This document shows, one piece after another, positions 1 through 34,931 of a stretch of 64,000 nt of DNA. This DNA comes from Desulfobacterales bacterium. GTDB taxonomy: Bacteria > Desulfobacterota > Desulfobacteria > Desulfobacterales > UBA5616. Each line of letters starts with the position of its first letter. The first letter of the stretch is position 1. The notes beneath the pieces are model-generated. The model ran no database searches. It had not been told where the DNA came from and saw nothing but the letters and a program-made list of their open reading frames with translations. Made by a program: the position numbers and the translations under genes. Location of the stretch: NCBI GenBank assembly GCA_046483495.1, contig JAWODC010000001.1, positions 64,001-128,000 of the forward strand, read 5' to 3'.

Positions 1-294
1 GATGGACCCGACGGCCCCGATTACACCTGCGTTATTGACCATACAATCAAGCCGCCCGAATTCACTGACGGCAAAGTCCACAGCAGCCGACACATCCGTT
101 TCCCGTGTCACATCCGTTTGAACAAATCGCGCCCGTCCGCCGAGTTCCGACGCCAATGCCACACCGGCATCTGTTTGGATATCGGCAATAACGACCGATG
201 CCCCTTCTTCTGCAAACAATTTCGCAGTCCCGGCGCCAATTCCACATGAGCCGCCGGTGATAACGGCGCTTTTACCCTCTAACCTGTTCCCCAT
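1..294 (-). CDS. Short-chain dehydrogenase/reductase (SDR), N-terminal part, runs off the left window edge
   Basis: Not in the ORF track. Manual translation from ATG at 294 gives MGNRLEGKSAVITGGSCGIGAGTAKLFAEEGASVVIADI...FGRLDCMVNNAG, with the TGxxxGIG and NNAG motifs; AAAGGA RBS upstream. Confidence 0.9.
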   Translation of the reverse strand, partial: MGNRLEGKSAVITGGSCGIGAGTAKLFAEEGASVVIADIQTDAGVALASELGGRARFVQTDVTRETDVSAAVDFAVSEFGRLDCMVNNAGVIGAVGSI

Positions 295-404
295 TTCGAA
301 TTCCTTTTCTGTTCAGTTAGATGTGATAAAAGAATAAGGTCCGTCCTTGATCCGTGAACCGCGCGGCACTTTTTCTCCTTGTGTCACATGCCGCCGGAGA
401 TGGA

Positions 405-1430
405 TCACGGAGCGATGATTACCTTGCATTGATCGACAGGTTTCTTCAGCGCTTCAAACATTTCCGGGAGTTCATCGAGAGACACCGTGTGGGTGATCAT
501 CGATTCCGGCGTGATCCGTCCCTGTTCAGCCATGTCCAGGGCGAGGCGAAAATCGCGCCATTCATAGCCGACACTGAAACGGATCTCCAGGTTTTTAAAA
601 ACCGCCATACCGGGATGAAACCGGTCCGCAGCGTTGCACACACCGGCCACCACAATCCGGCCGCCCGAGGGGGCCAATTCGATACATTCCTGAATCATTC
701 CAGGGACGCCGACGGCTTCGACGATCAGGTCCGGCGCCGCTCCCGTTTTTTTGGCAAATGCCGCGCCCACATCTTTTTCCTCGTTGATGTCAATGACATC
801 GTCTGCCCCCATTTTCAGTGCAAGCCGCATTCTCTCGAAGGAACGCTCGCTGACGAGAACCCGACCCGCACCGCAAAACCTGCTCCAATTTACTGCCGTA
901 AGCCCGATCGGTCCGGCACCCACAACAAGGATATTTTGCCCGGGCGCCACATCAGCCCGTCTGATTGCATAGAGACCGACGGAAAACGGTTCGATACATG
1001 CGGCCGCCTCCCAGGAAACCGTGTCGGGGATTTTAAACGAGACCTTTTTATCGACCAGCACGTATTCGGCATAAGCCCCCTGGGCATTCCTGTATCCCAG
1101 ACCGATGCTCTTGGCCCGTGAGCAGGCTTTTTCGTTTCCTGTCAAACAGGCGTTGCATGTACCGCACACCAGGATCGGGAACACCACAACCCGGTCCCCC
1201 GGGCGCCATTCCGGTTCGGCCCCGGGCCCCACCTCGACGACTTCACCTGAAAATTCATGGCCCAGAACGGTTCCCGGTTTTGCCAGGCCGAGCTGAACCC
1301 AGTGAAGATCAGTCCCGCATATTCCGCATGCTTTCACTTTCAAAAGGAGTTGATTTTCTCCGGGTCTCGGAACTGCCTGTTCACTGAAGACCAGGCGTTC
1401 ACCAGGCCCCTGCATGATCACGGTTTTCAT
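405..1430 (-). CDS. Zinc-dependent alcohol dehydrogenase (MDR family)
   Basis: CGICGTD, GHEFSG, structural-Zn CGTCNAC..C and GAGPIG motifs. Start placed at MKTVIM (AGAGG RBS); the ORF track extends to 1466. Confidence 0.9.
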   Translation of the reverse strand: MKTVIMQGPGERLVFSEQAVPRPGENQLLLKVKACGICGTDLHWVQLGLAKPGTVLGHEFSGEVVEVGPGAEPEWRPGDRVVVFPILVCGTCNACLTGNEKACSRAKSIGLGYRNAQGAYAEYVLVDKKVSFKIPDTVSWEAAACIEPFSVGLYAIRRADVAPGQNILVVGAGPIGLTAVNWSRFCGAGRVLVSERSFERMRLALKMGADDVIDINEEKDVGAAFAKKTGAAPDLIVEAVGVPGMIQECIELAPSGGRIVVAGVCNAADRFHPGMAVFKNLEIRFSVGYEWRDFRLALDMAEQGRITPESMITHTVSLDELPEMFEALKKPVDQCKVIIAP

Positions 1431-1462
1431 TTTTTTCCTCTTTTCCGAACCGATGGCGGTCG

Positions 1463-2083
1463 TCATTTTTCGGCATCAACACTTTTCGCGGTCGGGTGCG
1501 GCGGTGAAACGATCACCTTTCGAACGGGAAGATCTTTCGCCATTTTTTTCGGCGAAAATATAATCGATGGAATCACCTTTTCGGAACAAACGAACCCTTC
1601 GGCCTGCCTGCAATCCCCGTACTTTTTTTGCAGTTCGTCTAACGGTCCGGCATCGAGGGCTTTCATGATGCAGGCGTCCACACAGATCGGCTTTTTGTTT
1701 TCCGACAGCCTGTCGATGCAAAAATCACATTTCTGCATTTTCGCCTCTTCCCGGAATTCAAATTGCGGCGCCTGGTAGGGGCATGCCATTTTGCATTGTT
1801 TGCAGCCGATGCAGGTTGCCCCATCCACCACAACAACCCCGTCTTCTTCTCTCTTTTTCACGGCGTCAACAGGGCAGACAGCCGTGCAGGCAGGATTTTC
1901 GCAATGGTAGCAGGAGCCAAACACATGATGGACAGACACATCGGGGCAAGTACCCTTCTCGATGCTGATCATACGAATAAAGCTGACCGGGCCGGCGGGA
2001 AGATCGTGCCAGTCTTTGCAGGCTACGATACATGTGCGGCAGTTGATGCACAATTGCTGATTGAAATAGAATCCCATCTGCAT
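1463..2083 (-). CDS. 4Fe-4S dicluster electron-transfer subunit (DmsB-like)
   Basis: MQMGFYFNQQLCINCRTCIVACKDWH, CYHCENPACTAVCP, CIGCKQCKMACPY, KCDFC..C; start refined to ATG 2083. Confidence 0.9.
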   Translation of the reverse strand: MQMGFYFNQQLCINCRTCIVACKDWHDLPAGPVSFIRMISIEKGTCPDVSVHHVFGSCYHCENPACTAVCPVDAVKKREEDGVVVVDGATCIGCKQCKMACPYQAPQFEFREEAKMQKCDFCIDRLSENKKPICVDACIMKALDAGPLDELQKKYGDCRQAEGFVCSEKVIPSIIFSPKKMAKDLPVRKVIVSPPHPTAKSVDAEK

Positions 2084-2093
2084 ACATCTTCCC

Positions 2094-4355
2094 TCAATCG
2101 TTTGCCTTCTCGACTTGCACCCATGCGGTGTTCGTGCAAAAAGCACCCCCCGGCGAGGGTTCATCAGCGATCAACACATTGGGGCAGCCGCCGTGGTCTA
2201 TACCGTTCTCATCAGGATCGTACCAGGCGCCTTCCGGGATATCGACTACCCCCGGCATTATTTTCTCTGTAACCGCCGCCGGAAGGACGGTTTTTCCCCT
2301 GTGGTTGAAAACCAGCACTGCATCCCCGTCCTCGATTCCCCTCGATTTCGCATCGACACCGTTCATAAATACAGACTGCCGTTCCAGTTCTCTCATCCAT
2401 GGAATATTGTCAAATCGGCTATGGGTTCGCCGCCAGTAGTGGGTGGTAATCAGCTGGAGTGGAAAATCTTCACTGCCGCTCTCCCGGCACGCTATGTACT
2501 TTGGAATCGGCGGAACTTTTGAATTGTTCATATCCGCAAGTACCTGGGAAAATATCTCGATTTTTCCGGAAGCTGTCGGAAATTTATGGTGTTCGGGGTC
2601 CTCGATCTGATGTTGAAATGCAATTACCGATTGGGGCGCAACCCGTTGAATGCCGTTTTTTTTAAATGTTTCATACTCTTTTATCTCTTCGATTCTTTCA
2701 ATCGAGCTTTTTAGCCATTCTTCTTCTGTTTTCTCACTAAAATTGGATATCCCCATTTTGGCTGCCAGTTCAGTGGCTATGTCAAACATGGATTTCGATT
2801 CGCCGACGGATTCAATGGCCTTTTCTCGATGGCCGTAAAACGGCAAAAAGGGGCATACGGTCAAATCGTTTCGTTCCAATATCGTATTCTGCGGAAGAAC
2901 AATATCTGCGAACTTGGCAGTAGGCGTCATAAATTGTTCATGCACTACAATGAAATCGAGTTTTTTCATTGCAGCGGCAATTTTATTGGTATTTCCGTAT
3001 TGATTCAGCCAGTTTATGGTTACCAGATAAAGCAGCTTGTAGTCTTCTGGATAACCGCCGCTTCGCCCTTTCAGAACAGCATCTGCAACCCGCACACGGT
3101 TTAAAAACGCGGTGGTTTGCCCGCCGGTATAAAAATGGCCGGGTGCCGGGATGCTGAAGTTTCCTTTTCTCGCCTCTCGATGATAGTAAATGGAATCTTT
3201 TCTCAATGGAGATGCGAGATCAACGGGGTTGTATACGCCCTTTTTCAGGAAACGGTGCACCCCTTCCATAATGACCAGCCTGACTGCGGGGTCCTGGACC
3301 TGCATGGGGCCGCACCCCGCGCTTCCGCCCTCGATACCGATATTGCCCGTCATACCTGCCAATGTTGCCGCGGCACGGTTGAATTGCTCCCCAAAGGCGC
3401 CTCGTGCCGGTGCAAAACCATCCATGAGCGCCGCGGGCCTGCAAGCGGCATATTCCTTGGCCAAATCGGCTATAACAGCCCCTTCTACACCGCATATTCG
3501 CTCCGCCCATGCGGGTGTTTTCGGAATGCCGTCGTTTTTTCCGAGCAGGTATGCCTTGTATTCATTGAACCCGACGGTATATCTGTCCAGAAACGCCTGG
3601 TCCTGAATGCCTTCTTTCAGAATGACGTAGGCCATCGCAATCAGCATGGCCGCATCGGTTCCCGGCCGTATCGGTATCCATCGATCGGCAAGAAGCCTCG
3701 CTGTCTCTGTGTAACGGGGATCGACACATACCGCCCGTACGCCCTTCTCTTTCAGCTGTCTGAAAATGGAAGGCATGTGGCCCCCGTACATTCGAGTCAC
3801 TACCGGGTTCCAGCCCCAAAAAATGATGAATCGAGAGGCCAGAAGATTGTCCCGGCTGTTTGCCGTTACCCCATTGGCAACGCCGTAGGTGGCGTTTGCC
3901 GCAAAATTCGTTCCTTCATCTGAAACAGTGCCGAGCACTCCGGTGTATCCGCCTGCATTTGCAAGCACCCTCTCGATCAATCCCGCATAATGCAGGTGGC
4001 CAAGATCTCCCGAAGAACAAAGAAAAATCCTTGACCCGGCACCATATTCCGCCCGTACGCGGTTCAATTCCGATGCAACTGTTTCAAGGGCCTCATCCCA
4101 GCAAATACGTTTGAACGCTCCTTTCCCACGTTCACCTGTCCGTTTGAGGGGGTGTTTGAGGCGTCCCGGATCGTATACAAGCTGTCGGTAAGCGCGCCCC
4201 TTCAAACATGCCCTGAACTGCGGCTCCGGGCCGTCATCGGTTTCAACCCGGACAATCTTCCCGCCCTGGACATGAAGCTTGAGCACGCACGCGTTTGTGC
4301 AGTGGTCGTGGCATACCGAATAAACGGTCTTTACAGAATCACCCGGCGTTTCCAT
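2094..4355 (-). CDS. Molybdopterin oxidoreductase, DMSO-reductase family (DmsA-like catalytic subunit, no Tat signal)
   Basis: N-terminal CxxxCxxxC..C (CHDHCTNAC...CLKG), FWGWNP, PIRPGTD, ADIVLP and C-terminal molydop-binding domain (RRTHSRF, GVVDIPEGAW). Confidence 0.88.
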   Translation of the reverse strand: METPGDSVKTVYSVCHDHCTNACVLKLHVQGGKIVRVETDDGPEPQFRACLKGRAYRQLVYDPGRLKHPLKRTGERGKGAFKRICWDEALETVASELNRVRAEYGAGSRIFLCSSGDLGHLHYAGLIERVLANAGGYTGVLGTVSDEGTNFAANATYGVANGVTANSRDNLLASRFIIFWGWNPVVTRMYGGHMPSIFRQLKEKGVRAVCVDPRYTETARLLADRWIPIRPGTDAAMLIAMAYVILKEGIQDQAFLDRYTVGFNEYKAYLLGKNDGIPKTPAWAERICGVEGAVIADLAKEYAACRPAALMDGFAPARGAFGEQFNRAAATLAGMTGNIGIEGGSAGCGPMQVQDPAVRLVIMEGVHRFLKKGVYNPVDLASPLRKDSIYYHREARKGNFSIPAPGHFYTGGQTTAFLNRVRVADAVLKGRSGGYPEDYKLLYLVTINWLNQYGNTNKIAAAMKKLDFIVVHEQFMTPTAKFADIVLPQNTILERNDLTVCPFLPFYGHREKAIESVGESKSMFDIATELAAKMGISNFSEKTEEEWLKSSIERIEEIKEYETFKKNGIQRVAPQSVIAFQHQIEDPEHHKFPTASGKIEIFSQVLADMNNSKVPPIPKYIACRESGSEDFPLQLITTHYWRRTHSRFDNIPWMRELERQSVFMNGVDAKSRGIEDGDAVLVFNHRGKTVLPAAVTEKIMPGVVDIPEGAWYDPDENGIDHGGCPNVLIADEPSPGGAFCTNTAWVQVEKAND

Positions 4356-4372
4356 TTTTTATTACCGATCGT

Positions 4373-4849
4373 TTAAGCGACAGGAGAAATACACGTCCGC
4401 ACAGGCAAATACTCCAGGAGTTCAATGACATTCCCGTCAGGATCCCGCCCGTATACAGCCCTCAGGCCCCCAAGTGAATCCTTGGATGGCGGTGTGTGAA
4501 AACGCATGCCGGCATTTTTCAGGCGGTTGAATTCACTGTCAAGGTCATCGACAACAAGGCATATGTGAGTAAAACCGCAATCGCAAACCCGCCTGGAGGA
4601 AAATATCCTCGGTTTTGGGGATCTGAATTCGAAAAATTCGATGATCATTCCCCCCTTTCTCAGCATCAGCACTTTTCCCGCAGAACGTTTAAGTCCGGTT
4701 ACGCCGTCCACCCGATCCCCTGTTGCCGTGTGGGGCCGCCATTCGGCCATTTCCATTTCTACATCAAATCCAAGGGCATCCCGATAAAAGGCGCTTAATC
4801 GCTCGATATCAGGGGTAGAAATCGCTACATGGTGTATTCTGCGAATCAC
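4373..4849 (-). CDS. VOC/glyoxalase family protein (methylmalonyl-CoA-epimerase-like fold)
   Basis: HHVAI...FYRDALG, EFFE, THICL, YGRDPDGNVIELLE; GTG start at 4849 with GAAAGGA RBS. Confidence 0.85.
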   Translation of the reverse strand: MIRRIHHVAISTPDIERLSAFYRDALGFDVEMEMAEWRPHTATGDRVDGVTGLKRSAGKVLMLRKGGMIIEFFEFRSPKPRIFSSRRVCDCGFTHICLVVDDLDSEFNRLKNAGMRFHTPPSKDSLGGLRAVYGRDPDGNVIELLEYLPVRTCISPVA

Positions 4850-4883
4850 ACCCGGGTTCCTTTCTTTTCCGATACCGGAAAAA

Positions 4884-5705
4884 TCAGATATAGAGCAGAC
4901 CGCCATCCACATAAATCGTGGACCCATTTATATTTCTGGCATCTTCCGAACACAGAAAAAGTATGGTATTGGTGACATCCGACATCGTGATCGGCTCGCC
5001 GAGAGCGCTTTGCTTTTTATTGATATACGCATACAGCTGGTCCTCGGGGGTGCCGTTCTTTCCCGAAGTCGCCCTGAGAGCGCCCCTGGTCAGTGATGTC
5101 ATAACCAGGCCGGGGCCCACACAGTTGACGTTTATTTTGTATTTGCCGACCTCCTTGGCCATGGATACCGTCAATGACTCGATGCCTGCCTTTGCAGCCC
5201 CGTAGGGTGCATTTCCGGCCTGACCTTTGGCGCCAATGGAACTGGTATTTACGATTTTGCCGTATTTTTGTTTTATCATGACCGGAAGGGTGTATTTAGA
5301 GCAAAGAAAGGTGCCTTTTAGCATCACATCGACAATCAGGTCCCAGATACCTTCTTTTACCTCCCAGACGGGAACAGCGACGGAAGCGACACCGGCGTTG
5401 TTTATCAGTATGTCTATCCTTCCAAATTTTTCTACAACCCGATTTATCATTTTTTCTACGTCATCTTCCCTGGACACGTCACATTCAATACCGACGGCGT
5501 CACTTCCCAGACTGCGGATTTCCGCCAACACGCTTTCCATGTCGTCCGTGGTCGCCATATCGTATTTCAGCTCTCGTTGCGGCTTGCATATGTCTGCAAT
5601 TGCAACGTTAGCCCCCTCCCGGGCAAACCCGAGTGCGTGCGATTTCCCCAGACCGTTGGCACCACCCGTAATCAGCGCCACCTTGTTTACAAATCGATCA
5701 GCCAT
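4884..5705 (-). CDS. SDR oxidoreductase with a mycofactocin-coupled/carveol-dehydrogenase-like insertion
   Basis: TGGANGLG, NNAG, YGAAK; SHA..F.. followed by the DICKPQRELKYDMATTDD insertion. Confidence 0.85.
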   Translation of the reverse strand: MADRFVNKVALITGGANGLGKSHALGFAREGANVAIADICKPQRELKYDMATTDDMESVLAEIRSLGSDAVGIECDVSREDDVEKMINRVVEKFGRIDILINNAGVASVAVPVWEVKEGIWDLIVDVMLKGTFLCSKYTLPVMIKQKYGKIVNTSSIGAKGQAGNAPYGAAKAGIESLTVSMAKEVGKYKINVNCVGPGLVMTSLTRGALRATSGKNGTPEDQLYAYINKKQSALGEPITMSDVTNTILFLCSEDARNINGSTIYVDGGLLYI

Positions 5706-5850
5706 GAAATGCCACCTTTCCGCGAAAGGACGCTTGCCGTTTATGTGTTAAAAACCGTTTCGCCTGGACAACCGCCATCGGATCTCCTCGCTTTCATGCT
5801 GACGGAATCCGGACGTAGAACCGGAGCACGAATGCGACGCGTTGGAAATG

Positions 5851-6657
5851 CTAACCGACATCCTTGAATTCGGGTTTGCGTTTTTCAAAGTTGGCCTGAA
5901 TGGCTTCAACCTGGTTCGAAGAACCGATGAGGGGCATTATGAGATCCGTCTCCAGCAGTAGCCCGTGCTTTTCGGACCCATGCCATGCTTCATTCAGCAG
6001 TTTTTTTGCAGATCTCACCGCGTGAGGATTTTTATCGGCGATCTCCTCGGCCAACGAAAACGCTTCTGCAAGGGGGTCGTCACATACGCGAGTGACGAGT
6101 CCAAGCCGCGCTGCTTCTTCAGCTGGCAGGATCTTTCCCGTGAACAAGAGTTCTTTGGCAATATCCAAACGGACAAGATCCCGAAGCGTCTGGGACCCGG
6201 ACATATCAGGGATCAACCCCCACTTTATTTCCATTACGGAAAATTTCGCGTCCGGAGAGGCATAGCGGATATCGGCCCCCAATGCTATCTGGCATCCGCC
6301 ACCGAACGCAACCCCATGAACGGCGGCGATAACAGGAACGGGCAATTGTTTCCAACCATGAGCGGAATATTGGCCGAGATTTGCAATGTTGCCGTCCGGT
6401 CGTCTGCTTAAATCATCATTTTCCTGGATGCCCCCGCTTTCCATTTGCTGGAAATACTCGAAATCGAGCCCGGCGCAGAATCCCTTCCCCTCCCCGGACA
6501 AAACTACCGCCCTGACCTGCCTGTTCAACGACAGGTTACGGGCAGCCTCGCCGATAGCCGAAAACATCGCCGGATTCAAGGAATTGTACTTTTCCGGCCG
6601 GTTAAAACTGACATGCGCAATATGATTCTCAATGGTTGTCTTAACAAGTTCCGACAT
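5851..6657 (-). CDS. Enoyl-CoA hydratase/isomerase (crotonase superfamily)
   Basis: NRPEKYN, FCAGLD, AVHGVAFGGGCQIALGAD, MEIKWGLIPDM; start refined to MSELV (6657). Confidence 0.9.
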   Translation of the reverse strand: MSELVKTTIENHIAHVSFNRPEKYNSLNPAMFSAIGEAARNLSLNRQVRAVVLSGEGKGFCAGLDFEYFQQMESGGIQENDDLSRRPDGNIANLGQYSAHGWKQLPVPVIAAVHGVAFGGGCQIALGADIRYASPDAKFSVMEIKWGLIPDMSGSQTLRDLVRLDIAKELLFTGKILPAEEAARLGLVTRVCDDPLAEAFSLAEEIADKNPHAVRSAKKLLNEAWHGSEKHGLLLETDLIMPLIGSSNQVEAIQANFEKRKPEFKDVG

Positions 6658-6688
6658 TATTTTATCCCCCAAAAGTTTAGCTATGTTT

Positions 6689-11170: not shown

Positions 11171-11194
11171 AAAACCATTCTCCTCCTATGGCAA

Positions 11195-11656: not shown

Positions 11657-11686
11657 TTCAACTCCTTTAAGAGCGCGGGGCCTCTT

Positions 11687-19403: not shown

Positions 19404-19449
19404 TTTTTCTTTTAACTGAACCTCCAACGTTCCATTAGGGCGAACTATT

Positions 19450-20982: not shown

Positions 20983-21139
20983 ATGTTGATTCGATTTATC
21001 TAATAAATTGAGCTGGTATGTCGAACACTTAAATTTCAGCCGGAAGCCTATGCCAATACAATTTAGCCGACTTGAATGCATATAGCGTGAATGCATCGGG
21101 CAAGAAATCCAATTTAAGAAATAAATAAAGACATAAACC

Positions 21140-26273: not shown

Positions 26274-27065
26274 TTATTTCACGTTTTTAGTATCTCCCTT
26301 AAGAAATCTTTCAAAGGCCCCTTGCATAAACTTGGTCGCAAAAATTGCCGGCATGAACCTCTCGGCCTCTTGATAACCTTCAATTGCCTTACGGTTTAAT
26401 ATCTGTTTAATATATGTCTTGGAAACGGCACTTTTGGAACCAATTTTCTTTGCCAACTCCTCGCATTTGGGCATCAATTCATCATCTTCATAAACGTCGA
26501 TTACCATGCCTAACTTCTTGGCCTCTTCCGCGGGCACTTCCGAGGCGGACATGCAAAGATAGGCCACTACGTTTTTTCCATATTTTTCCAATCCGCGGGT
26601 AACCGCCCAGGCGGGAAGCGCGCCGTGATTTATCTCCTTCAGTGCAAATTTGGCGCTTTTGGAAGCAAAAACCATATCACAGCAGCCGGATATCTCCAAA
26701 CCAAAACCAAAGGCCGCGCCGTTAACGGCCGCTATAACCGGCGTTTCAGACAGTTCGATAGCCTTAAAAGGGATAAAACAGAGCTTTATGAAATCAAATC
26801 CCGCCTCTATTTTACCCACGCTTGCGAACTGCTCGACATCCGCTCCGGCGGAAAATACCGGAAAAGGCGTTCCCTTTTTGGGATGAGTGAACGTTTGACC
26901 AGTCAGTATAATACAGCCGACATTTTTATCATTGTCCAATTCGTTCACAGCAGTCCCGATTTCGCGAAACAGCTGGTCGTTGGCAGCATTGAATTTATCT
27001 GGACGATTGATGGTGATAATTGCGTAATTTTCTTTTTTTTCTACTTTGACGACTTCATATTCCAT
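26274..27065 (-). CDS. Enoyl-CoA hydratase/isomerase family protein
   Basis: NRPDKFNA, FSAGAD, AVNGAAFGFGLE, KEINHG. Confidence 0.88.
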   Translation of the reverse strand: MEYEVVKVEKKENYAIITINRPDKFNAANDQLFREIGTAVNELDNDKNVGCIILTGQTFTHPKKGTPFPVFSAGADVEQFASVGKIEAGFDFIKLCFIPFKAIELSETPVIAAVNGAAFGFGLEISGCCDMVFASKSAKFALKEINHGALPAWAVTRGLEKYGKNVVAYLCMSASEVPAEEAKKLGMVIDVYEDDELMPKCEELAKKIGSKSAVSKTYIKQILNRKAIEGYQEAERFMPAIFATKFMQGAFERFLKGDTKNVK

Positions 27066-27099: not shown

Positions 27100-28899
27100 T
27101 TAAACGGCGTCCCATTCTTTTTGAATGATGGCGGGAAGCTTTTGAGCCCTTTCTTTTCCGCTCATAAAATCAAGAAAGCGTATGCCCTGGGGATCTAAAG
27201 CCTTAATCAGTTCAACCTGCTGTAATGTCGGAGCGTCCGTCTCGGGACAATTGGCCGGAATTTCAACCCCGAACCCCGTGTTGTCAATTACATCCTTTTC
27301 GTTTACACCTTTATGAAGAGATCTTACAATCCACCTGCCGCGTTCAACCATTTCCATTACGCAAAGGTTTGTAATTACCATTACCGGTCCGGGTTTCAAG
27401 CCTTGGGCCTTCCGCTCTTCATCGGTAAAGTAGTACCGCGTACCTGTAATGTAATTGACCTTCGGAACAAAAACCTGCTTTGAATGTACAGCAAAATAGG
27501 CTACTGATTTTCTATGAAGTCCGAAAACAACCGGTGCTCCTGCCCCGCCGGGAAGTCTCAGCCCCCTGGGATTCCATTCCCCTGTCGGGTTCCCATCGGC
27601 GTCCCTGACCGGAAGGGCCAACCATGATATATTGATATCTCCATTAACGTCCATCTGGGCACTTGAAACCGCCTCGACATCTCCTTCGCCCCGATTGTGA
27701 AGCGCTTCAATACATTCCGTCATAGACCACAAGCCGGAACTGAATGCGGTGCATGCCATTTCAGATGTGTGAAATCCAAGTTTGAAAGGCAAAGGGTCTA
27801 CACCACTGTACCCGACTATAAAGGCATTCGGGGCATGGGTCAGTTTTGCCAGCATATAAGCCGCGTATGCCAATGGCGTAAAAGATCCCAGGACTATGGC
27901 ATCCTCATCCTCGATAACGGCGGCAATTGCGGCAAGCATCTGGTCCGCGGCATCGAATTGCTGGGCTTTTTCGATATCCAGTGATTCCGGGAAATCAATC
28001 CGATGAATCGTTTTTGAAAGCCTTTTCAGATTATCCTTCGCTTCCTGCCCACCGACCATTCCCCAGTATTCATCTTCTGAAGCGCCTATCATTTTGAGTG
28101 CGTATTCCTTGGCCGTCCTTGGATTCAATCCCTGCAGATCCTTCAGCATCTGAACCAAATGCTGGGGATAGTACGGTACACAACTACAGGGGCTAGCGCC
28201 CATTGGGCAATGAATCACAAGATCGATCTCATTTCGAAAAAGCTTCGTCGCGGATTTGTCCGCTCGTATCTCTTCTTCCGAAATAATTTCCTCGACTGTA
28301 GCGATCACCTTTTTAGCGGCCTTTGCCATGTCGATATCGGATCCGGATGTACCGAAGATCTGAACATTTCCGGATCGGTCCGAACGCTGCGCATGAATAA
28401 CAGCCACATCCGGCGAAATGGCCTCGATCGCCGTCAGTTCCTTTCCGGTGAATGGACATTTTACGGTTTTATACAGGTGCGGCGCCTCCTTGATGATGTC
28501 AGATCCCGTCGGTCCTTTAAATGCGGCAAAAGGCAGGCCAAGGCCGGCTGCTTCAAGTCCCTTGATCATGCTGCATCCCTCGATTTCGGTCAGCTTGATC
28601 AATCCTTTTTCCGCAACTCTGCGAAAGTTCGGCGGCAGGCCAAATGCTTCGAGACTTAAAAAACTGAAAATCAAATGATCAACGGCATCAGCGCCTATAA
28701 GCCATTCCATTTCCCATCCGCCGGTTATTGACATAACGGTGAGCCCATCGATTTTCTGTCTGATAATTTCACGAATAACGGCCATGGGTTTATTGCAGCT
28801 CCAGCCTCCACCGATGCCGACAAATGAACCGGGAGTAATAATTTTTCCGATATCCGATAATTCACCAATTTTTGATTTTAACTCAATTTTAGAGCTCAT
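27100..28899 (-). CDS. Fused CoA-transferase-like protein (GctAB/IpdAB-type alpha+beta)
   Basis: Alpha half GIGG....KPMA, GLEAAGLGLPF, CPFTG, PDVAVIHAQ.SD..GN; beta half LAKLTHAP, AQMD.NG.IN, RLPGGAG, VITNL. Start 28899 (AGGAGG spacing) or 28908. Confidence 0.8.
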   Translation of the reverse strand: MSSKIELKSKIGELSDIGKIITPGSFVGIGGGWSCNKPMAVIREIIRQKIDGLTVMSITGGWEMEWLIGADAVDHLIFSFLSLEAFGLPPNFRRVAEKGLIKLTEIEGCSMIKGLEAAGLGLPFAAFKGPTGSDIIKEAPHLYKTVKCPFTGKELTAIEAISPDVAVIHAQRSDRSGNVQIFGTSGSDIDMAKAAKKVIATVEEIISEEEIRADKSATKLFRNEIDLVIHCPMGASPCSCVPYYPQHLVQMLKDLQGLNPRTAKEYALKMIGASEDEYWGMVGGQEAKDNLKRLSKTIHRIDFPESLDIEKAQQFDAADQMLAAIAAVIEDEDAIVLGSFTPLAYAAYMLAKLTHAPNAFIVGYSGVDPLPFKLGFHTSEMACTAFSSGLWSMTECIEALHNRGEGDVEAVSSAQMDVNGDINISWLALPVRDADGNPTGEWNPRGLRLPGGAGAPVVFGLHRKSVAYFAVHSKQVFVPKVNYITGTRYYFTDEERKAQGLKPGPVMVITNLCVMEMVERGRWIVRSLHKGVNEKDVIDNTGFGVEIPANCPETDAPTLQQVELIKALDPQGIRFLDFMSGKERAQKLPAIIQKEWDAV

Positions 28900-28950
28900 G
28901 GGATTCATCCTCCTGTTCTGCTAATCATTCTGCGATTTGGCTCTTCCATC

Positions 28951-30267
28951 TTATTCAATCCAATATTCCTCTTTAGGAAGATTCTGCTTGTCATAGCGCT
29001 TTACCAGATATCCAAAGAATCTTTCTACAGCCGCCATGTTGACGTTTATACCGTTTTCTCTGAGAGCGGCGACGATGTGATCGAGCCTCGGCGGACACCC
29101 TGGAATTTCAACTACTTCATTTAATCTTTTGTCATCCTTGTATGTATCAATTGGGCACTTCCCAAGCAAAAAGGTCTTTTTTGCAGTGCCGGACGGTGTT
29201 GCCCCCTTTGCCAACAATTCGATATCGTCGAAGGGCTTCCCTTCGTTTGCAGATAAAATCAACAACATGGTTGGTGGGAAAATATAGGTGCAACCTGTAC
29301 AGACCCCTATAGGAAAAGGCAAATCAAATCCTTCCAGGTTTTGTTTTATAAATGAGATGGGTTTTCTGCCGTCCTCACTGTAGGGTGTATCGATTTTTAT
29401 TTGGTGAACATGTTCTTCAAGCTTCAGGCCTTTGATCTGTATATCTTTGACATCCGTACTGCGGCCATGTATTTTGGAAAACTTCCTCAAGTGAAGTACA
29501 TCCGTAACGGGAACTCCCAGAAGACTGCTTCCAACCACATCAACCGAATACATGTCTTTGCCTGCTATGACAAGGTCTGCCCGATGAGCTGTCCCGGTAA
29601 ACATCGGCCCCGCCTCCAGCATGTAGGTTCCATCGATAATAGTGAGATTCGGGTAAAATCGTTCGGCTAAATGGAGGATGTATTCATCTACTGGGTGATC
29701 GGGGTTGTGGCAGGACTGCTTGCTTTTAACGCTCAGACTGCCTTTTAAATTTTTAAATCCAAGCGTCACGCGTGTCCCTTCATGCGTCTTTAAGGCAGGC
29801 AGATTGATGAGGTAATCGCATTCAAACATTGGTTGGGCAATTTTTAGTGTATGCGGACCCAGGGAAAGCTTTTGGTGCTTTTCAGTGTTGAAGTCCACCA
29901 GTTTTACACCATACTTTTTTTCAAAAGCATGATAATTGAGCCCGTCAAAAAGGTTTTGGGTTGTGGACCCGAAATCCTTGTTCTGTGCACATCCGTCACC
30001 AACCGTAATGTTTTTTACTCCTCTGTCCTTCAACAGCTTTACCACTTCCTCAACTACACTGCTCGTTGTAATGACTCCGTAAGGGGCATATGGAAATTTG
30101 TCCAACCATACAACCAGATTCGGCTTGACCAAAACCGACATGTTGGGGTCCAAATCGTTAAATCCATCGCATAACTCGAGCGCCTCTCGTACCCCCTGTT
30201 TGTTCTCTCCTAAAGAGCAGAGGGCAACAGGTGCATCTCTGTCCTGATTATGAATACCAGGCTTCAT
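28951..30267 (-). CDS. DUF362 domain Fe-S protein
   Basis: VLVKPN, LPALKTH, LGFKNLKG, IIDG, D..SVD plus C-terminal CTGC, GKC and GCPP; start refined to 30267. Confidence 0.8.
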   Translation of the reverse strand: MKPGIHNQDRDAPVALCSLGENKQGVREALELCDGFNDLDPNMSVLVKPNLVVWLDKFPYAPYGVITTSSVVEEVVKLLKDRGVKNITVGDGCAQNKDFGSTTQNLFDGLNYHAFEKKYGVKLVDFNTEKHQKLSLGPHTLKIAQPMFECDYLINLPALKTHEGTRVTLGFKNLKGSLSVKSKQSCHNPDHPVDEYILHLAERFYPNLTIIDGTYMLEAGPMFTGTAHRADLVIAGKDMYSVDVVGSSLLGVPVTDVLHLRKFSKIHGRSTDVKDIQIKGLKLEEHVHQIKIDTPYSEDGRKPISFIKQNLEGFDLPFPIGVCTGCTYIFPPTMLLILSANEGKPFDDIELLAKGATPSGTAKKTFLLGKCPIDTYKDDKRLNEVVEIPGCPPRLDHIVAALRENGINVNMAAVERFFGYLVKRYDKQNLPKEEYWIE

Positions 30268-30410
30268 AGTAATCCTCCTTTTCATATAATTACTGATTTG
30301 AAATCAGTCGCATTACCGAATACACCCACCCCATGCCAAGCTCATGAGTATTTGAGAAAATTTAGGATGATATAAAGATTAATATTTGCTGCACGACCGA
30401 TGAAAGGTAT

Positions 30411-31211
30411 TTATTTGCCGCGGAATTCCGGCTTTCTCTTCTCAAGAAAGGCCGTTGTGCCTTCTTTCGCATCATGTGTTTCGAAGGACTGGCAGAATTG
30501 GTTCAACTCCTTGTCGATTCCTTGATAAAGATCATGATCGTTTACCAGATTAACGCATTGTTTGGCCCATCTCACCATTAAACCACTCTTGGAGATGATC
30601 TTTTCGGCTAATCCGTAAACCTTTTGATCAAGTTCTTCCGGTTTAACAACCTCATTTACAAGTCCCAGTTCGAGGGCCTTTTGCGCGTTTATCGGGCCTC
30701 CGGTGAGAATCATTTCCATTGCTTTGCCTTTGCCAACAATTCTTGGAAGTCTCTGGCTTGCACCACTTCCGGTTATGATGCCCAGGTTGATTTCCGGCTG
30801 AGAAAAAGTAGCTCTTTCCGTACAAATCCTCATATCGCAGCCCAGAGCAATTTCGCTCCCCATACCCCATGCCATACCGTCAACCGCGGCTATTACGGGT
30901 TGATTAAGATTTTCAAGTAGCGTGGGACTGAAATGGTCCTTCAGCAGTTCTTTGACCTTTTGCCATCCACTTTCCCTTGCAATGTTACTCCATTTTTTCA
31001 GCATTTTAATATCTGCTCCCGCCATGAAATTGTCACCGCTTCCTTTTATTACGACCACTCGCAAAGAGTCATCACCTGCAATTTCGGAAAGGAGCTCCTT
31101 CAAGTCCGAAGACATGATTTCACTGTAAGCATTGAATACTTCGGGTCTGTTTAAAATAATAGTACCGATACCCTCCATTTTCTTGTAAAGAATGGTTCGA
31201 AATTCCATCAT
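30411..31211 (-). CDS. Enoyl-CoA hydratase
   Basis: NRPEVFNA, FMAGAD, GMGSEIALGCD, QPEINLG, FLEKRKPEF. Confidence 0.92.
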   Translation of the reverse strand: MMEFRTILYKKMEGIGTIILNRPEVFNAYSEIMSSDLKELLSEIAGDDSLRVVVIKGSGDNFMAGADIKMLKKWSNIARESGWQKVKELLKDHFSPTLLENLNQPVIAAVDGMAWGMGSEIALGCDMRICTERATFSQPEINLGIITGSGASQRLPRIVGKGKAMEMILTGGPINAQKALELGLVNEVVKPEELDQKVYGLAEKIISKSGLMVRWAKQCVNLVNDHDLYQGIDKELNQFCQSFETHDAKEGTTAFLEKRKPEFRGK

Positions 31212-31298: not shown

Positions 31299-31706
31299 TT
31301 ACTGGAGGGCGACTTTTCCGATATTTTGCTTTATGTATTCAGCAACCTTTTCCCCCGGCAATCCGGGGGGAAAAACTTTGTGTATGCCTTTGCTTTCAAG
31401 TTCGCGGAAATCGCCGAGTGGAATAACGCCACCCATTATAAGCATGACATCCGTTTTTCCATATTTCTTCAACATCGGGACCAGATCTTCAGCTAATAGT
31501 AAATGGCCGCTGGTCATAATACTCAATCCAATAACATTTACATCTTCTTGAATCGCGGCATTAACAATATCGTCTGCTGTTCCAAACCTAAAGTATATGA
31601 CCTCCATTCCAGCGTCCCTGAGTTCTCTGGCAATAAGTTTCGTTCCTCTCCCGTGCACGTCAATTTTCTTTTTTGCCAAAAGTACCTTTATTTTCGGATC
31701 AACCAT
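31299..31706 (-). CDS. Cobalamin-binding small subunit of an acyl-CoA mutase
   Basis: DVHGRG (DxHxxG), LRDAGMEVIY, IGLS..GH, GGVIP, VFPPG; start refined to 31706. Confidence 0.92.
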   Translation of the reverse strand: MVDPKIKVLLAKKKIDVHGRGTKLIARELRDAGMEVIYFRFGTADDIVNAAIQEDVNVIGLSIMTSGHLLLAEDLVPMLKKYGKTDVMLIMGGVIPLGDFRELESKGIHKVFPPGLPGEKVAEYIKQNIGKVALQ

Positions 31707-31781
31707 ATTGTTTTCCTCATCTTGATTTCGGGTTGGGTTATTAGCACTTTTAGTGTCAAGCAACTAACTTTCTTTGATAAT

Positions 31782-33446
31782 TTAGCCGCATACGTACCAA
31801 CCAAAGGCTTCTCGCATGGGCACCATCATTTCTCCATTAGTCGCTCCTTTCCTTGCAGCTTCGACAAGGGCGGGCATTAGATCCGATTTTCCTTCTTTAA
31901 ACTCGTAACAGGTTTTTTTCAAATATTCAAGTGCCTTATCAACTTCCTGCTGGCTTCTTTTAGCCTTAAAGGCTTTTAGTTTCTCAATGGCTTTCCTTTC
32001 GATGTCCAAATCAACCTTGAATTGTTTATAGTCCATTTCTTCATCGGTCGTATACATATTAACGCCAACCACCGGCCAATCTCCTCTTTTGACGGCTTGC
32101 TTTCTTTTGTAAGACATATCGTCAATCGCTCTTTTAATCCAGCCGGCTTCCAGTCCCTTTAAATACCCGCCTTTGGATTCTAAATCGTCGTATATTTCCC
32201 AGGCTTCTTTTTCCATTGCATCTGTCAAAGACTCAACATAATATGACCCACCTAGTGGGTCTGCTACATTTCTAAGGCCGCTTTCCCACATCATAATCTG
32301 TTGCGTACGAATAGCCGTGCGATGTGAGATTTCGGTGGGGATGCTTATCGCCTCATCAAATGAGCAAGAATGGATGGACTGAACCCCCCCCATAATCGCC
32401 GCCATAACCTGCATTGTAATTCGAGCAGTATTATTAAGCGGCTGCTGCGCAGTGAGTACATTCCCGCTGGTGTGTATATGAACCCTGGCAAATCTGCTTT
32501 GCGGCTTTTCGCATCCTGCATTTTTTGTTATTTTTGCCCACATTCTTCTGTGAGCACGCAGTTTTGCAACTTCTTCGAAAAAGTCATTCTGAATACCTAC
32601 CTGAAAGCCAAGGCGACCAATAAAGCTGTCAGGGGAAAGGCCCGCCTTTTTTCCCGCTTCAATGACCGATTTTCCCCAGGAAAGTCCATAAGCAAGTTCT
32701 TGGAGCGGCGTAGCCCCTGCTTCCGACAGACCATACATGAATATGTTTGTCGTGTTCCAGGCAGGAATATTTTTTGTGCAAAATTTAATCAAATCTCCCA
32801 TTAAGGCATACCCCCATCCGGGTTCCCAGGACGGAATATCCTGTACCGCGACGCGCGGATACCAATTCATTGAATTGCCATGCAAATTGCTGATCGGTTC
32901 ACCTCGTCGTTCGGCGGCTGCACACGCAAGCGCCAGTGCAGGCAGGCAATTGTCTCCGGTTATGAAGGAAAAATTTGTTGTATTGAGATCCCAACCTCTC
33001 ATGATTTCATCGTAATCTTCTACAGAAGACAAAACACACCCACACTGTCCCACATTACCGCGAGCCTCAGGATGATCCGAATCGATGCCGTACATACAAG
33101 GGATGTCAAAAACTATGTTAAAAACCTTGTGACCGAAATATCCTTCCATGCCATCGGCCACCATTTTCTCCATTTTGGCCCTTGTTTCTTCACACGTTCC
33201 ATATCCGAAAACCATCTGCTGCATCCAGGGCGTCAATGCATATCCATCGGGGTAGAGCCCTCTCGTATATGGATATACCCCGGGCATTTCATATAAACTC
33301 AGGTTTTCAGTATCTTCCGGCGTGTAAACCGTTTTAATTTCTATTCCGGATAAATTCTTCCTTGGTTGTATTTTATCAACATACCTCGCCCTCAATTTTT
33401 CCCATGTTTCTTTTACTTCTTTATAACCCATATCGTCTTTATTCAT
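31782..33446 (-). CDS. B12-dependent acyl-CoA mutase large subunit (methylmalonyl-CoA mutase family), divergent specificity residues
   Basis: SGIEIKTVYTP, PGVYPYTRG, FD.P...G.DSD, EAGAT..QELAY, FFEEVAKLRA.RRMWA, LTAQQPLNN, ADPLGGSYYVE, VVGVN. Confidence 0.92.
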   Translation of the reverse strand: MNKDDMGYKEVKETWEKLRARYVDKIQPRKNLSGIEIKTVYTPEDTENLSLYEMPGVYPYTRGLYPDGYALTPWMQQMVFGYGTCEETRAKMEKMVADGMEGYFGHKVFNIVFDIPCMYGIDSDHPEARGNVGQCGCVLSSVEDYDEIMRGWDLNTTNFSFITGDNCLPALALACAAAERRGEPISNLHGNSMNWYPRVAVQDIPSWEPGWGYALMGDLIKFCTKNIPAWNTTNIFMYGLSEAGATPLQELAYGLSWGKSVIEAGKKAGLSPDSFIGRLGFQVGIQNDFFEEVAKLRAHRRMWAKITKNAGCEKPQSRFARVHIHTSGNVLTAQQPLNNTARITMQVMAAIMGGVQSIHSCSFDEAISIPTEISHRTAIRTQQIMMWESGLRNVADPLGGSYYVESLTDAMEKEAWEIYDDLESKGGYLKGLEAGWIKRAIDDMSYKRKQAVKRGDWPVVGVNMYTTDEEMDYKQFKVDLDIERKAIEKLKAFKAKRSQQEVDKALEYLKKTCYEFKEGKSDLMPALVEAARKGATNGEMMVPMREAFGWYVCG

Positions 33447-33668
33447 CAAATTACCTCCAGCTTTAAATAAGTTGCTGATGCTGAATTTATTTTTAAATGG
33501 GAAACACCCATGCTTCTTTCATTGCCTTGAAATGATACAATATAACTAATTTATCATGAGGGTTCTATATGTGTATTTTATTCAGGCCTTATTCCAAAGT
33601 TTTGCTTGAAAATAGTTTGGAACGAATATGAGGCCAAATTCAGCAGATTAACCTGGGATATTTGTGTG

Positions 33669-33711
33669 ACCGACCGGTTGGTATAATTGCTGATATTTTC
33701 TAACTTGTCAA
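33669..33711 (-). promoter_or_regulatory. Promoter of the mutase operon with operator ACCGACCGGTTGGT (33669-33682)
   Basis: Minus strand TTGACA (33706-33711), 17 bp, AATTAT, immediately followed by the palindrome. Confidence 0.65.
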
Positions 33712-34015
33712 CTCTAATTCGATTTTTTTTCATCATTTATATCGCAAAAAAATCATTACGCAAGATTTTGCATTTGAATGGTTTGGCAACAATGCGAACA
33801 AGGCCCAAACTTTGGATGGGATGATAACGGATAACATTCATAACGAAAATGAATCGGACACCGCTTTTTGAATATTTGGTATTCGCCGTTGTAATGGGTT
33901 GGGCCATTTTATGCTGGTTTTTGGGCCAATCATATTATATTTTAGATGAAATCAGGTCAAACTTTTTGATAATTTACCTATTTTATAGGTTCAATATCTC
34001 ATTTCGGGATTTTCA

Positions 34016-34029
34016 ATCGACTGGTCGAT
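34016..34029. promoter_or_regulatory. Operator-like palindrome ATCGACTGGTCGAT
   Basis: Same A.CGA-n4-TCG.T architecture; lies between the mutase operon and the second TetR. Confidence 0.45.
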
Positions 34030-34364
34030 CAGCATGTTTGATTTTTTTTCATTTTATCCGTTGAATTTCTTTAAAAATTATACTAATAATTCTTTTTTTA
34101 AAATTCATTGATTTTGTTTTCTGCGGCAAACAGTTCGGTTGCCGCTATAACAAGGCAATTTGCAGGCAATTTCCCAGCAGATAGGGTGTAAGTTCTCAAA
34201 GAAATATATGGGTTTCGTCTACAAGCAGATTTTCTCCCAAAAAAATTTTGTATTGCAGGTGCCCTGTCTGATCTTGGTTAATAATAATCAAAATCCAAAA
34301 TCAATCATCCAACTGTATTGTGGCCGACCGGATAAACGATACGTTTACTTAAAAAGGAGGTGAA

Positions 34365-34931
34365 ATGGCTTCAAGTTATGATAGAATAATTAAAGCGACC
34401 ATTGAGCTTATGAATAAAAAAGGTTACCATGGAACCTCAATACAAATGATCGCAGATAAAGCGAAAATTTCTAAGAGCACAATTATTCATCATTTTAACA
34501 ACAAAGAGGGAATACTTCTTGCGATCTTGGGTAAACATGTGCCTGATGCCGGAAAGCGACTTAAGGAAATAGTGGATAATAATGGAATGAAAGGAAGAGA
34601 TAAGCTAAAATTGTTTATGCAAAGTCATCTCGGCCAAATTGATAATTATGGGGATATCATGAATTTAAATCTGAGAGAAACGAGGTATTTTTCTTCTAAA
34701 AATAAAAAAATTTATAAAGAAATTCAACATGAATACGAGGACTTACTTAGAAAAATTGTGCTTCAAATTCAAAAGGAAGAAAAGCATCTGCTGCATGGTT
34801 TGGATCCTAAAATCATTACACTGGCGCTGTTGGGCATGTTAAATTCTATTCCACAATGGTATAAAAAAAAGGGCAAATTAGGTATCGATGAAATTGCCGA
34901 TCAGATATATCGAATGGTGACGTTCACATAA
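34365..34931 (+). CDS. TetR/AcrR family regulator, paralog of 15423-16001
   Basis: YDRIIKA, GYHGTSIQMIADKAKISKSTIIHHFNNKEGIL, LRETRY, LLGMLN..WY; AGGAGG RBS. Confidence 0.92.
   Translation: MASSYDRIIKATIELMNKKGYHGTSIQMIADKAKISKSTIIHHFNNKEGILLAILGKHVPDAGKRLKEIVDNNGMKGRDKLKLFMQSHLGQIDNYGDIMNLNLRETRYFSSKNKKIYKEIQHEYEDLLRKIVLQIQKEEKHLLHGLDPKIITLALLGMLNSIPQWYKKKGKLGIDEIADQIYRMVTFT

Follow-up and report, generated by a model that had tools for sequence, protein, structure and literature searches.

We analysed a 64,000-nucleotide stretch of DNA (hereafter the window) from a Desulfobacterales bacterium, bases 64001–128000 of contig C29 (GenBank assembly GCA_046483495.1, JAWODC010000001.1) in a genome of 4.19 Mb that is 96.7% complete. 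It contains a conserved core of 7 kb and six genes (26274–33449), which encode the large and small subunits of a B12-dependent acyl-CoA mutase, the crotonase ECH3, a DUF362 protein, a protein in which the alpha and beta parts of the GctAB fold are fused, and the crotonase ECH2. Our favoured account, drawn by analogy and in our judgement close to an even call without being probable, is that the mutase would unblock a bulky, apolar and probably alicyclic acyl-CoA and that the GctAB-fold protein would then cleave a C–C bond. A sequence-only reading of the first 35 kb had proposed an undescribed catabolic system built round a radical rearrangement, and this view is supported: no gene maps one-to-one on a characterised pathway, and the best solved relatives are 24–33% identical. 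All of the proteins have known folds, with the mutase and the fused protein forming uncharacterised clades. The cassette, the mutase clade and the pairing of the two enzymes are not described in the literature that we searched, with most subscription journals outside it. The anaerobic bacterial degradation of quaternary or highly branched carbon is a largely open question, and here two defined enzymes, conserved at 65–85% (mutase) and 70–84% (GctAB-fold protein), are always paired across three phyla, with Thermobifida cellulosilytica, Acrocarpospora macrocephala and Sphaerisporangium viridialbum as cultured carriers. Below, genomes are labelled G (G000 being the source genome), loci examined L and contigs C.

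A mutase and a GctAB-fold protein in a conserved core

Our scan of species genomes covered the best 80 of 93 loci, 36 of them at 64–85% identity and 44 at 38–45%. A homologue of the fused protein (at least 37% identical) is present in all 29 long loci (at least 14 kb) of the mutase clade, which come from 28 genomes of Desulfobacterota, Actinomycetota, Pseudomonadota and unplaced lineages, and in 0 of 27 long loci of the sister clade; it is not seen in the 7 shorter loci of the mutase clade. Of 20 long metagenome loci retrieved with the fused protein, 18 contain a B12 mutase, 9 of the same clade and 9 of other clades. The synteny envisaged earlier was kept for the mutase and fused protein but not for the FadH-type reductase OYE3, which has an orthologue in 1 of 34 core-bearing genomes. 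The usual gene order is MeaB, mutase, small subunit, ECH3, a short-chain dehydrogenase/reductase (SDR), fused protein and ECH2, often followed by a thiolase and a 3-hydroxyacyl-CoA dehydrogenase (3-HAD) or FadB. The small subunit adjoins the large one in 34 of 36 close loci, and ECH2 lies directly behind the fused protein in 34 of the 38 loci with both. A MeaB gene stands beside 19 of the 29 long loci; this cluster has none, and four are found elsewhere in the genome. Actinomycetota have a split form of the fused protein (~41%), divergent from the mutase, and 12 actinobacterial loci carry a dienoyl-CoA-reductase SDR behind the mutase. Partners at least 50% identical were found for ECH3 in 16 of 36 and 20 of 60 loci, and for the acyl-CoA dehydrogenase (ACAD) in 3 of 36 and 16 of 60, in most cases immediately preceding the fused gene. 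The cassette occurs rarely, in 2 of 300 genomes sampled from the class, and because many loci are kin, these counts overstate independence. Among the matches listed from a plasmid collection, the mutase reached no more than 38% and the fused protein no more than 37%.

The mutase has the hallmarks of an adenosylcobalamin-dependent acyl-CoA mutase, a TIM-barrel substrate domain and a B12-binding domain with a DxH motif, and its barrel model gives TM-scores of 0.86–0.88 to methylmalonyl-CoA mutase (MCM) and HcmA at 31–33% identity, HcmA being the best solved relative by sequence. Among 8000 candidates, 308 relatives reached E ≤1e-120, and the 120 listed are all at least 65% identical; in the FastTree phylogeny (52/111 rows) the clade is separate (support 100, stem 0.58) and unites three phyla. 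All 48 close homologues share the signature R87Q, Y89V, Q197M, D199W, R207Q, H244G and Q330H (MCM numbering), retain Tyr243 and Glu247, and have Val at the position of HcmA Asp117. Val and Gln thus stand, in 48 of 48, where MCM has Tyr89 and Arg207, which we take to hold the substrate carboxylate, and the S-specific Ile90/Asp117 of HcmA are Val80 and Val113 in the alignment with 4r3u. The pocket appears to offer neither a carboxylate nor a hydroxyl anchor, and both thioester-oxygen donors seem to be replaced by space-freeing residues. With Gln in place of Arg207, Val in place of HcmA Asp117 and Gly in place of His244 throughout, we read the substrate as a bulky apolar acyl group. The reaction may also be a vinyl or aryl shift independent of His244. 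Structures of H244A and Y89F variants were among the structure-search matches.

The sister clade (38–45%) has most of the signature and goes with 3-HAD and thiolase, not with the fused protein. Its loci (L052–L095), from Acidimicrobiia, Alphaproteobacteria, Nocardioides and a Thermoplasmatales archaeon, also carry TetR_C_24 regulators. The source genome holds six further large-subunit-like mutase genes, along with its nine DUF362 genes and four MeaB matches. L105, L108, L114, L019, L126, L131 and L144 each combine two different B12 mutases and the fused gene in a single cluster, perhaps a hint at a skeleton blocked in two places.

The fused protein is 24–29% identical to GctAB, AibAB and IpdAB and about equally far from each (model pLDDT 67.5). 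At the position of beta-subunit Glu54, the mark of class I CoA-transferases of the GctAB type, it has Tyr367; Tyr is found in 60 of 60 fused and Phe in 14 of 14 split forms. The alpha-subunit base Glu105 of IpdA, located with the E105A structure 6coj, is Gly111 here (Gly in 67 of 67 and 14 of 14), and the neighbouring Glu110 is kept only in fused forms. AibB Cys56, which we take to be the distinguishing residue of AibAB, aligns with Gly366/Tyr367, a position read from four point variants at the site. Fused and split forms alike retain E108, E383, E412 and R451. By these residues the protein belongs to none of the three groups. It is, by analogy, a candidate C–C cleaving enzyme, because the two solved relatives without Glu54, the decarboxylase AibAB and IpdAB, cleave C–C bonds, the latter by a retro-Claisen reaction according to passages of PMC6678751. 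Relatives number 174 at E ≤1e-120 among candidates, and the 120 listed are all at least 70% identical. A predicted complex with ECH2 scored 0.00 and was used neither way. In L229 (1409–6330, G072) and L228 (G068), two SCP-x/Ltp2-type thiolase-like genes with OB-fold partners lie directly behind the fused gene, followed by a Lig2 orthologue and a beta-keto acid cleavage enzyme.

DUF362 occupies the exact SDR slot both here and in L021 (65%). Of the loci of at least 10 kb that include the fused gene, 30 carry just the SDR, 11 just DUF362, none both and 13 neither. No SDR orthologue was found in this genome or in that of L021 (G066, completeness not given), the best match being at most 43% identical; G068 and G072, with a more distant DUF362 type, have one elsewhere in the genome, so the exclusion holds per locus and fails per genome for the distant type. 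In an hhalign comparison with LarA homologues (probability 60%, E 8.6e-5), H168, K178 and H193 align with LarA His174, Lys184 and His200, and 14 of 14 DUF362 proteins keep these residues and four C-terminal cysteines unchanged. Following the residue roles given in passages of PMC11770544, K178 and H193 would match the LarA cofactor residues Lys184 and His200, at an alignment probability of only 60%, and the His108 equivalent that two-His racemisation calls for is absent. The protein is thus a candidate nickel-pincer/Fe-S dehydrogenase or epimerase, with a dehydrogenase suggested because a single base, an acceptor for the hydride and an outlet through Fe-S would suffice. The genome has larB, larC and larE, but also a LarA, and control genomes gave no clean link between DUF362 and larC/larE (Bacteroides thetaiotaomicron has DUF362 without them, and two archaea show the reverse). 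Searching the PDB with DUF362 gave nothing at E <0.001, and its C-terminal part matched NuoB-like domains in Pfam at E 0.05 only. The swap of SDR for DUF362 in one operon slot offers a functional guess for a large family of unknown function. A larB gene also lies ~6 kb beyond the core locus of G061 (L182, 13087–13842), whose operon has the SDR.

The residue comparison bore out the claim that the mutase, the fused protein and the ACAD carry non-canonical catalytic residues. In the ACAD, GGG replaces YEG and the helix-G glutamate is present, an arrangement like that of isovaleryl-CoA dehydrogenase. Four recurring ACAD families (ACADw, 12, 14 and 19) mostly lack the YEG glutamate, as do ACADs for branched or bulky substrates in passages of PMC8360864. 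ECH3 is a candidate hydratase. Atlas searches pointed to no function. In three salt-lake metatranscriptomes from two studies, contigs match parts of each core gene at ≥99% identity; they may stem from DNA carry-over and do not indicate expression levels. Where cover is thin or missing, at 17–19.6 kb, silence does not follow, because the runs were found with the core.

Modules, operators and genomic setting

Pfam assigned a family to 28 of the 29 open reading frames (ORFs) scanned in 1–34931 and confirmed the gene inventory drawn up before: two SDRs, a zinc alcohol dehydrogenase (ADH), a molybdenum (Mo) enzyme with its Fe-S subunit, a VOC protein, three crotonases, three old yellow enzymes (OYE/FadH), a tungsten aldehyde oxidoreductase (AOR) with ferredoxin, an ACAD, a hydrolase, two ligases, a 3-oxoacid CoA-transferase pair, the fused CoA-transferase-fold protein, DUF362, a split B12 mutase and two TetR_C_24 regulators. 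The SnoaL-like protein scored 26.6 bits, slightly below its cut-off of 27, and a phytoene-desaturase-family flavoprotein (11687–13039) had been absent from the list. Coordinates are collected in the table.

Table. Genes, gene blocks and operator motifs in the first 34,931 bases of the window.
Feature	Position	Strand	Basis or remark
SDR1 (cut by window edge), Zn-ADH, Mo enzyme + Fe-S subunit, VOC, SDR2, ECH1	1..6834	-	Pfam
OYE1, BaiCD-like (below cut-off), accessory	6689..8644	-	curated family scores
Flavoprotein (phytoene-desaturase family), ferredoxin, tungsten AOR: triad, accessory module	9254..13039	-	Pfam
OYE2, FadH-type, accessory	13107..15029	-	GWHD motif
Motif B	15262..15277		overlaps TTGACA box upstream of left arm
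TetR1 (TetR_C_24, KstR2-like fold)	15423..16001	-	Pfam
Motif B	16093..16108		upstream of TetR1
ACAD, goes with core	16315..17457	-	GGG replacing YEG, helix-G glutamate
Motif A	17614..17627		between ACAD and hydrolase
Alpha/beta hydrolase, hypothetical protein, Lig1, canonical 3-oxoacid CoA-transferase A + B	17870..22569	+	Pfam
Motif A	18745..18758		before hypothetical gene, Lig1, 3-oxoacid CoA-transferase pair
OYE3, FadH-type dienoyl-CoA reductase-like; end of core transcript here	22702..24630	-	GWHE motif
Acyl-CoA ligase Lig2, same strand as core	24651..26183	-	orthologue counts
Crotonase ECH2 with conserved insertion, core	26274..27065	-	Pfam
Fused alpha-beta GctAB/AibAB/IpdAB-fold protein, core	27100..28908	-	fold and residue comparison
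DUF362 protein, four conserved C-terminal cysteines	28951..30285	-	PF04015
Crotonase ECH3, both catalytic glutamates, core	30411..31211	-	PF00378, family consensus
B12-binding small subunit, core	31299..31763	-	PF02310, DVHGRG cobalamin motif
B12 acyl-CoA mutase large subunit, core	31782..33449	-	PF01642
Motif A	33669..33682		directly downstream of -10 box of predicted mutase promoter
TetR2 (TetR_C_24), divergent from mutase	34365..34931	+	Pfam

The idea that the 35 kb form one conserved pathway under one operator did not hold up, as only the core is co-conserved everywhere and two operators are present; given the partial conservation outside the core, we regard the 35 kb as a core plus modules. 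The ACAD, Lig2 and the OYE/flavoprotein/AOR arm accompany the core in some anaerobes only. Orthologues of the flavoprotein and of OYE1 each occur in 8 of the 34 core-bearing genomes, and in 0 and 1, respectively, of 60 relatives without the core; all lie within the 16 core-bearing genomes not titled Actinomycetota or Pseudomonadota. The flavoprotein–ferredoxin–AOR triad is kept at 64–70% in L127, next to the core, and in L164, L166 and L168. G068 has OYE1, the triad and a block for carbon monoxide dehydrogenase and acetyl-CoA synthase (CODH/ACS) on one contig, with OYE1 beside the AOR and flavoprotein. Partners of OYE2 at 49–52% lie near the core in L021, L036, L151 and L182. Lig2 has orthologues in 8 of 34 core-bearing genomes, in 4 of them on the mutase contig, and is probably the enzyme of entry in anaerobes. 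At the loci compared, no partner of at least 45% was found for the ADH, the Mo enzyme, SnoaL, the hydrolase or the 3-oxoacid CoA-transferase pair, which were not searched genome-wide; the genes of 1–6834 have at most one partner each at 45–50%, and the hydrolase/Lig1/3-oxoacid CoA-transferase block has none of at least 50% in 96 loci. Paralogues elsewhere in the genome are 68% identical to the ADH, 69–70% to ECH1 (two) and 43–48% to the Mo enzyme (four).

In ECH1 (5851–6834), Gln replaces the first catalytic Glu and there is a Glu-x7-Asp pair, presumably as in dienoyl-CoA isomerases; the true start of the gene is probably near 6657. The ENG glutamate is kept in subunit B of the 3-oxoacid CoA-transferase. 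OYE2 (GWHD) and OYE3 (GWHE) have FadH-type motifs, an active-site Tyr plus GWH being what we take to mark FadH-type 2,4-dienoyl-CoA reductases, and neither reached a curated family; at 531, 457 and 432 bits, the OYEs fall below the BaiCD equivalog cut-off of 825. None of the three flavoproteins on C29 has the covalent-flavin motif G-F-L/R-x-N/S-T/L-H-A of CtmAB and delta24 desaturase, as given in passages of PMC11061730.

A single palindrome had been thought to be shared by the promoters. Motif A (ACCRACCGGTYGGT) is indeed exact at three sites (17614, 18745 and 33669), the sole 3 exact matches in the 4.19-Mb genome, but the left arm and TetR1 promoters carry the related motif B (CTGACCGRTTGTCAAG; 15262 and 16093), the sole 2 exact matches in the genome, instead. 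In shuffled intergenic DNA, 3 of 2000 sets gave even one match to motif A at ≤1 mismatch; at ≤3 mismatches there is no excess (12 versus 7.5 ± 2.9 by chance). The predicted promoter facing the mutase is TTGACA-17-AATTAT, and its -10 box abuts the 33669 site, which would be the position of a repressor. Because a sigma-70 scan gave 35 sites against 40 expected, promoter calls are based on position only. TetR1 and TetR2 are 40% identical; we infer that TetR1 represses the left arm by reading motif B and that TetR2 acts as repressor at motif A. Near homologous clusters, motif A has 3 single matches at ≤1 mismatch (L016–L155, L164–L191), and with so few matches the regulon is therefore local. Directly behind an exact motif A site lies a 162-aa ORF (18829–19317) with no Pfam or NCBIfam match.

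The left limit of the 35 kb is an artefact of the window. The same-strand gene run continues ~1.7 kb to the left of base 1 with SDR1 and two small genes, and a low-GC, enzyme-rich stretch reaches the contig start, 64 kb to the left. Bases 1–99000 of C29 have 41–52% GC (genome 51%), and the cluster gene blocks have a GC content at third codon positions (GC3) of 0.46–0.54 (genome median 0.60, 5th percentile 0.51). At the thresholds used, a congeneric genome (96% complete) had no match to the mutase, the fused protein, the flavoprotein or OYE1, and the catabolic region looks horizontally acquired. The left flank holds three further OYEs, a second AOR, a second Mo enzyme, a third TetR_C_24, a CODH/ACS-like block, two KstD-like flavoproteins and two more phytoene-desaturase-family proteins. 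At 14388–27960 of C29 (L012, L013), an Fmd-like amidohydrolase with partners precedes the CODH/ACS-like block with chelatase-like ATPases; the block has orthologues (42–79%) on contig C14 of G068, and three of its genes lie beside the fused gene in L136. To the right, window bases 46357–52360 encode two ATPases of the BcrAD type together with two HGD-D subunits, of the kind found in 2-hydroxyacyl-CoA dehydratase or class I aroyl-CoA reductase; they diverge from a second DUF362, which shares the Lys/His/Cys set of the first. Comparable pairs occur near the core in L049, L118 and L124. A DUF7064/DUF7065 protein (40468–41505) has relatives at 35–37% beside a Zn-dehydrogenase in L174, L176, L180 and L189, from wider actinobacterial clusters and one proteobacterial cluster.

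A proposed route and its alternatives

In the route that we favour, the flavoprotein, ADH, AOR and OYE/FadH enzymes, as accessory oxidoreductases, would turn a bulky apolar compound, probably alicyclic or terpenoid-derived, into a carboxylate and rid it of awkward double bonds, and a ligase would form the CoA ester. The mutase would then move the thioester carbon 1,2 off a quaternary or otherwise blocked alpha-carbon, as in the conversion of pivalyl-CoA to isovaleryl-CoA but on a larger skeleton. The ACAD and ECH3 would desaturate and hydrate the product, and the hydroxyl would be oxidised by an SDR, or by DUF362 here. Finally, the GctAB-fold protein would cleave a C–C bond, with no CoA transfer via a glutamyl adduct, by retro-Claisen ring opening as in IpdAB or by a retro-aldol reaction if the alcohol is tertiary; ECH2 would serve as a second hydrolase or isomerase, and a thiolase and 3-HAD of the ordinary kind, encoded close by in some genomes but elsewhere in this one, would finish. 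The order hydratase, SDR, fused protein and crotonase mirrors the ring opening by IpdF/EchA20/IpdAB and MrcF/D/E. Dienoyl-CoA reductases recur, of the SDR type in actinobacterial loci and of the FadH type here, and KstD/cyclohexanone-dehydrogenase-like flavoproteins are found in wider clusters of actinobacteria and also, in two copies, in the left flank here. The GGG-type ACADs, dienoyl-CoA reductases, cyclic-ketone dehydrogenase homologues and the likeness to a monoterpene island suggest, by analogy, a terpenoid or alicyclic substrate.

As anticipated, no thiolase or classical 3-HAD lies in the window, or anywhere on C29. The argument built on this, that the pathway is not plain beta-oxidation, is weak: elsewhere the genome has 18 thiolase matches above cut-off, and a single classical 3-HAD adjoins a thiolase on contig C17; local absence says little because homologous operons often include these genes (thiolase within 10 kb in 6 of 29 genome and 8 of 20 metagenome loci; 3-HAD/FadB in 6 of 29 and 6 of 20).

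Several observations weigh against our account. The best score of the fused protein is to a true CoA-transferase (GctA 93 bits, AibA 85, IpdA 82–83), and because both IpdA Glu105 and AibB Cys56 are absent, its chemistry is extrapolated. Loss of His244 is not special, since other uncharacterised mutases of G000 share it; the canonical glutamate is still present in two of the ACAD families found near the core, and the flavoprotein lacks the covalent-flavin motif of the limonene dehydrogenase CtmAB. No substrate-specific gene was found, family matches other than generic ones being below curated cut-offs, and the ligases differ between clades. Several genomes that share accessory modules are related metagenome-assembled genomes, so that co-occurrence may reflect a common donor.

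Two alternatives assign the mutase a smaller or more polar substrate. One, which we consider unlikely, has a distant Rcm/Hcm-like mutase make (R)-3- or 4-hydroxyacyl-CoA from a branched C4–C5 hydroxyacyl-CoA, with the SDR (or a DUF362 epimerase) and AbfD feeding beta-oxidation and the fused protein loading or recycling CoA. HcmA is the closest solved mutase, Val at HcmA Ile90/Asp117 resembles changes that favour the (R) product, and the core has a dehydratase of the AbfD type nearby in 2 of 29 and 7 of 20 loci. The Rcm-like mutase of Desulfococcus biacutus works with a 3-hydroxybutyryl-CoA dehydrogenase, according to passages of PMC7176365. AbfD is nevertheless absent from most loci, including all actinobacterial ones examined; the changes His244Gly, Gln197Met and Asp199Trp and the rebuilt barrel lining exceed what a C4 substrate needs; and the dienoyl reductases, GGG-type ACADs and constant non-canonical GctAB-fold partner are left unexplained. 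It is also quite unlikely that a CoA ester of a substituted succinyl or glutaryl type undergoes rearrangement, oxidation and decarboxylation through either the GGG-type ACAD, in the manner of IaaF after the IaaGH mutase, or an AibAB-like fused protein. In passages of PMC8360864, GGG marks the decarboxylating IaaF, which acts after a B12 mutase; like AibAB, the fused protein has the THAP motif and carries Gly where IpdA has Glu105, and a CoA-transferase of family III stands before the mutase in L018, L105, L108 and L114. Yet Gln replaces both Arg207 and Arg87 in 48 of 48, the retained helix-G glutamate of the ACAD suffices for ordinary dehydrogenation, AibB Cys56 is not kept, and neither hydantoinase nor any other iaa neighbour is among the recurring families.

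Other alternatives concern the skeleton and the extent of the system. A steroid-like substrate had been entertained, and membership in the steroid C/D-ring (HIP) pathway with KstR2, FadD3, IpdAB, EchA20, IpdC and IpdF is very improbable: TetR_C_24 regulators, an IpdAB-fold protein beside crotonases and an SDR, and KstD-like flank genes recall it, but identity to IpdA is 24–26% with Gly at Glu105, the ligases score 334 and 324 bits against a FadD3 (NF005801) cut-off of 657, and the operator is unlike the KstR2 box. The pathway has no mutase step as described in passages of PMC6678751. Rather unlikely, too, is a bolder form of our account, in which the core is an oxygen-independent system for removing quaternary carbon from terpenoids (resin acids, oxidised gem-dimethyl rings): a new, His244-less mutase class would move the thioester from the quaternary carbon, a GctAB-fold lyase or hydrolase of a new kind would split the C–C bond, and DUF362, here as a nickel-pincer/Fe-S dehydrogenase, would do the NAD-dependent step and so give the nickel-pincer cofactor its first net redox role. 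There is an appreciable chance, though below even, that the left arm (1–15029) and the hydrolase/Lig1/CoA-transferase block serve other substrates within a ~100-kb accretion of catabolic modules. The different operator and probably different TetR, the GC3 (0.51–0.54 versus 0.46–0.48), the lack of flavoprotein, OYE1, OYE3 and Lig2 orthologues in all 18 actinobacterial or proteobacterial core-bearing genomes, and the location of arm and core on separate contigs in G068 and G072 all fit this view. Orthologues of the flavoprotein and of OYE1 in 8 each of the remaining 16 core-bearing genomes, compared with 0 and 1 of 60 coreless relatives, and a flavoprotein–AOR pair 5–9 kb from the fused gene in L127, argue for a link to the core.

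Relation to known systems

For DUF362, the nearest comparison is with LarA racemases (Pfam clan CL0471; passages of PMC11770544), which resemble it through the three aligned residues; His108 and Arg75 of LarA are unaligned, and a C-terminal cysteine domain takes the place of LarA_C. The indoleacetate pathway (IaaGH, IaaF and IaaL; passages of PMC8360864) likewise places a GGG-motif ACAD after a B12 mutase, but here there is no Arg207 and there are no iaa neighbours, and a GctAB-fold partner replaces IaaL. The Castellaniella defragrans monoterpene island (CtmAB, GeoABC and MrcA-H), as described in passages of PMC4109377, shares a phytoene-dehydrogenase-family flavoprotein, alcohol and aldehyde oxidation, a ligase, dienoyl-CoA reductases, the logic of hydratase, dehydrogenase and ring hydrolase, and an island location. 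It differs in its CtmAB flavin motif, absent here, and in its NAD aldehyde dehydrogenase, where our cluster has an AOR; the main text of PMC4109377 mentions a mutase 0 times.

The fused protein has the fold of the 3-methylglutaconyl-CoA decarboxylase AibAB (5mzw) and of GctAB (1poi), at 28–29% identity in the alpha part, and shares the THAP motif with AibB; GctB Glu54 and AibB Cys56 are absent and its neighbours are catabolic. With IpdAB (6co6, 6co9) it shares a CoA-transferase fold without the transferase glutamate, adjoining crotonases and an SDR, and TetR_C_24 control. IpdAB, with EchA20, IpdF and IpdC, opens steroid rings without a mutase (passages of PMC6678751), whereas the protein described here, at 24–26% identity and without Glu105, is fused alpha to beta in most members and coupled to a B12 mutase. 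That mutase has the TIM-barrel fold, Tyr243 and Glu247 in common with HcmAB (4r3u), IcmF (pivalyl/isobutyryl-CoA; 4xc6, 5cjw) and MCM (4req), and is like HcmAB in its split large and small subunits and in Gln at the Arg207 position. It differs from all three in its 31–33% identity, in Val89, Gly244, Met197, Trp199 and His330, in having no MeaB in this cluster, and in being always paired with a GctAB-fold protein.

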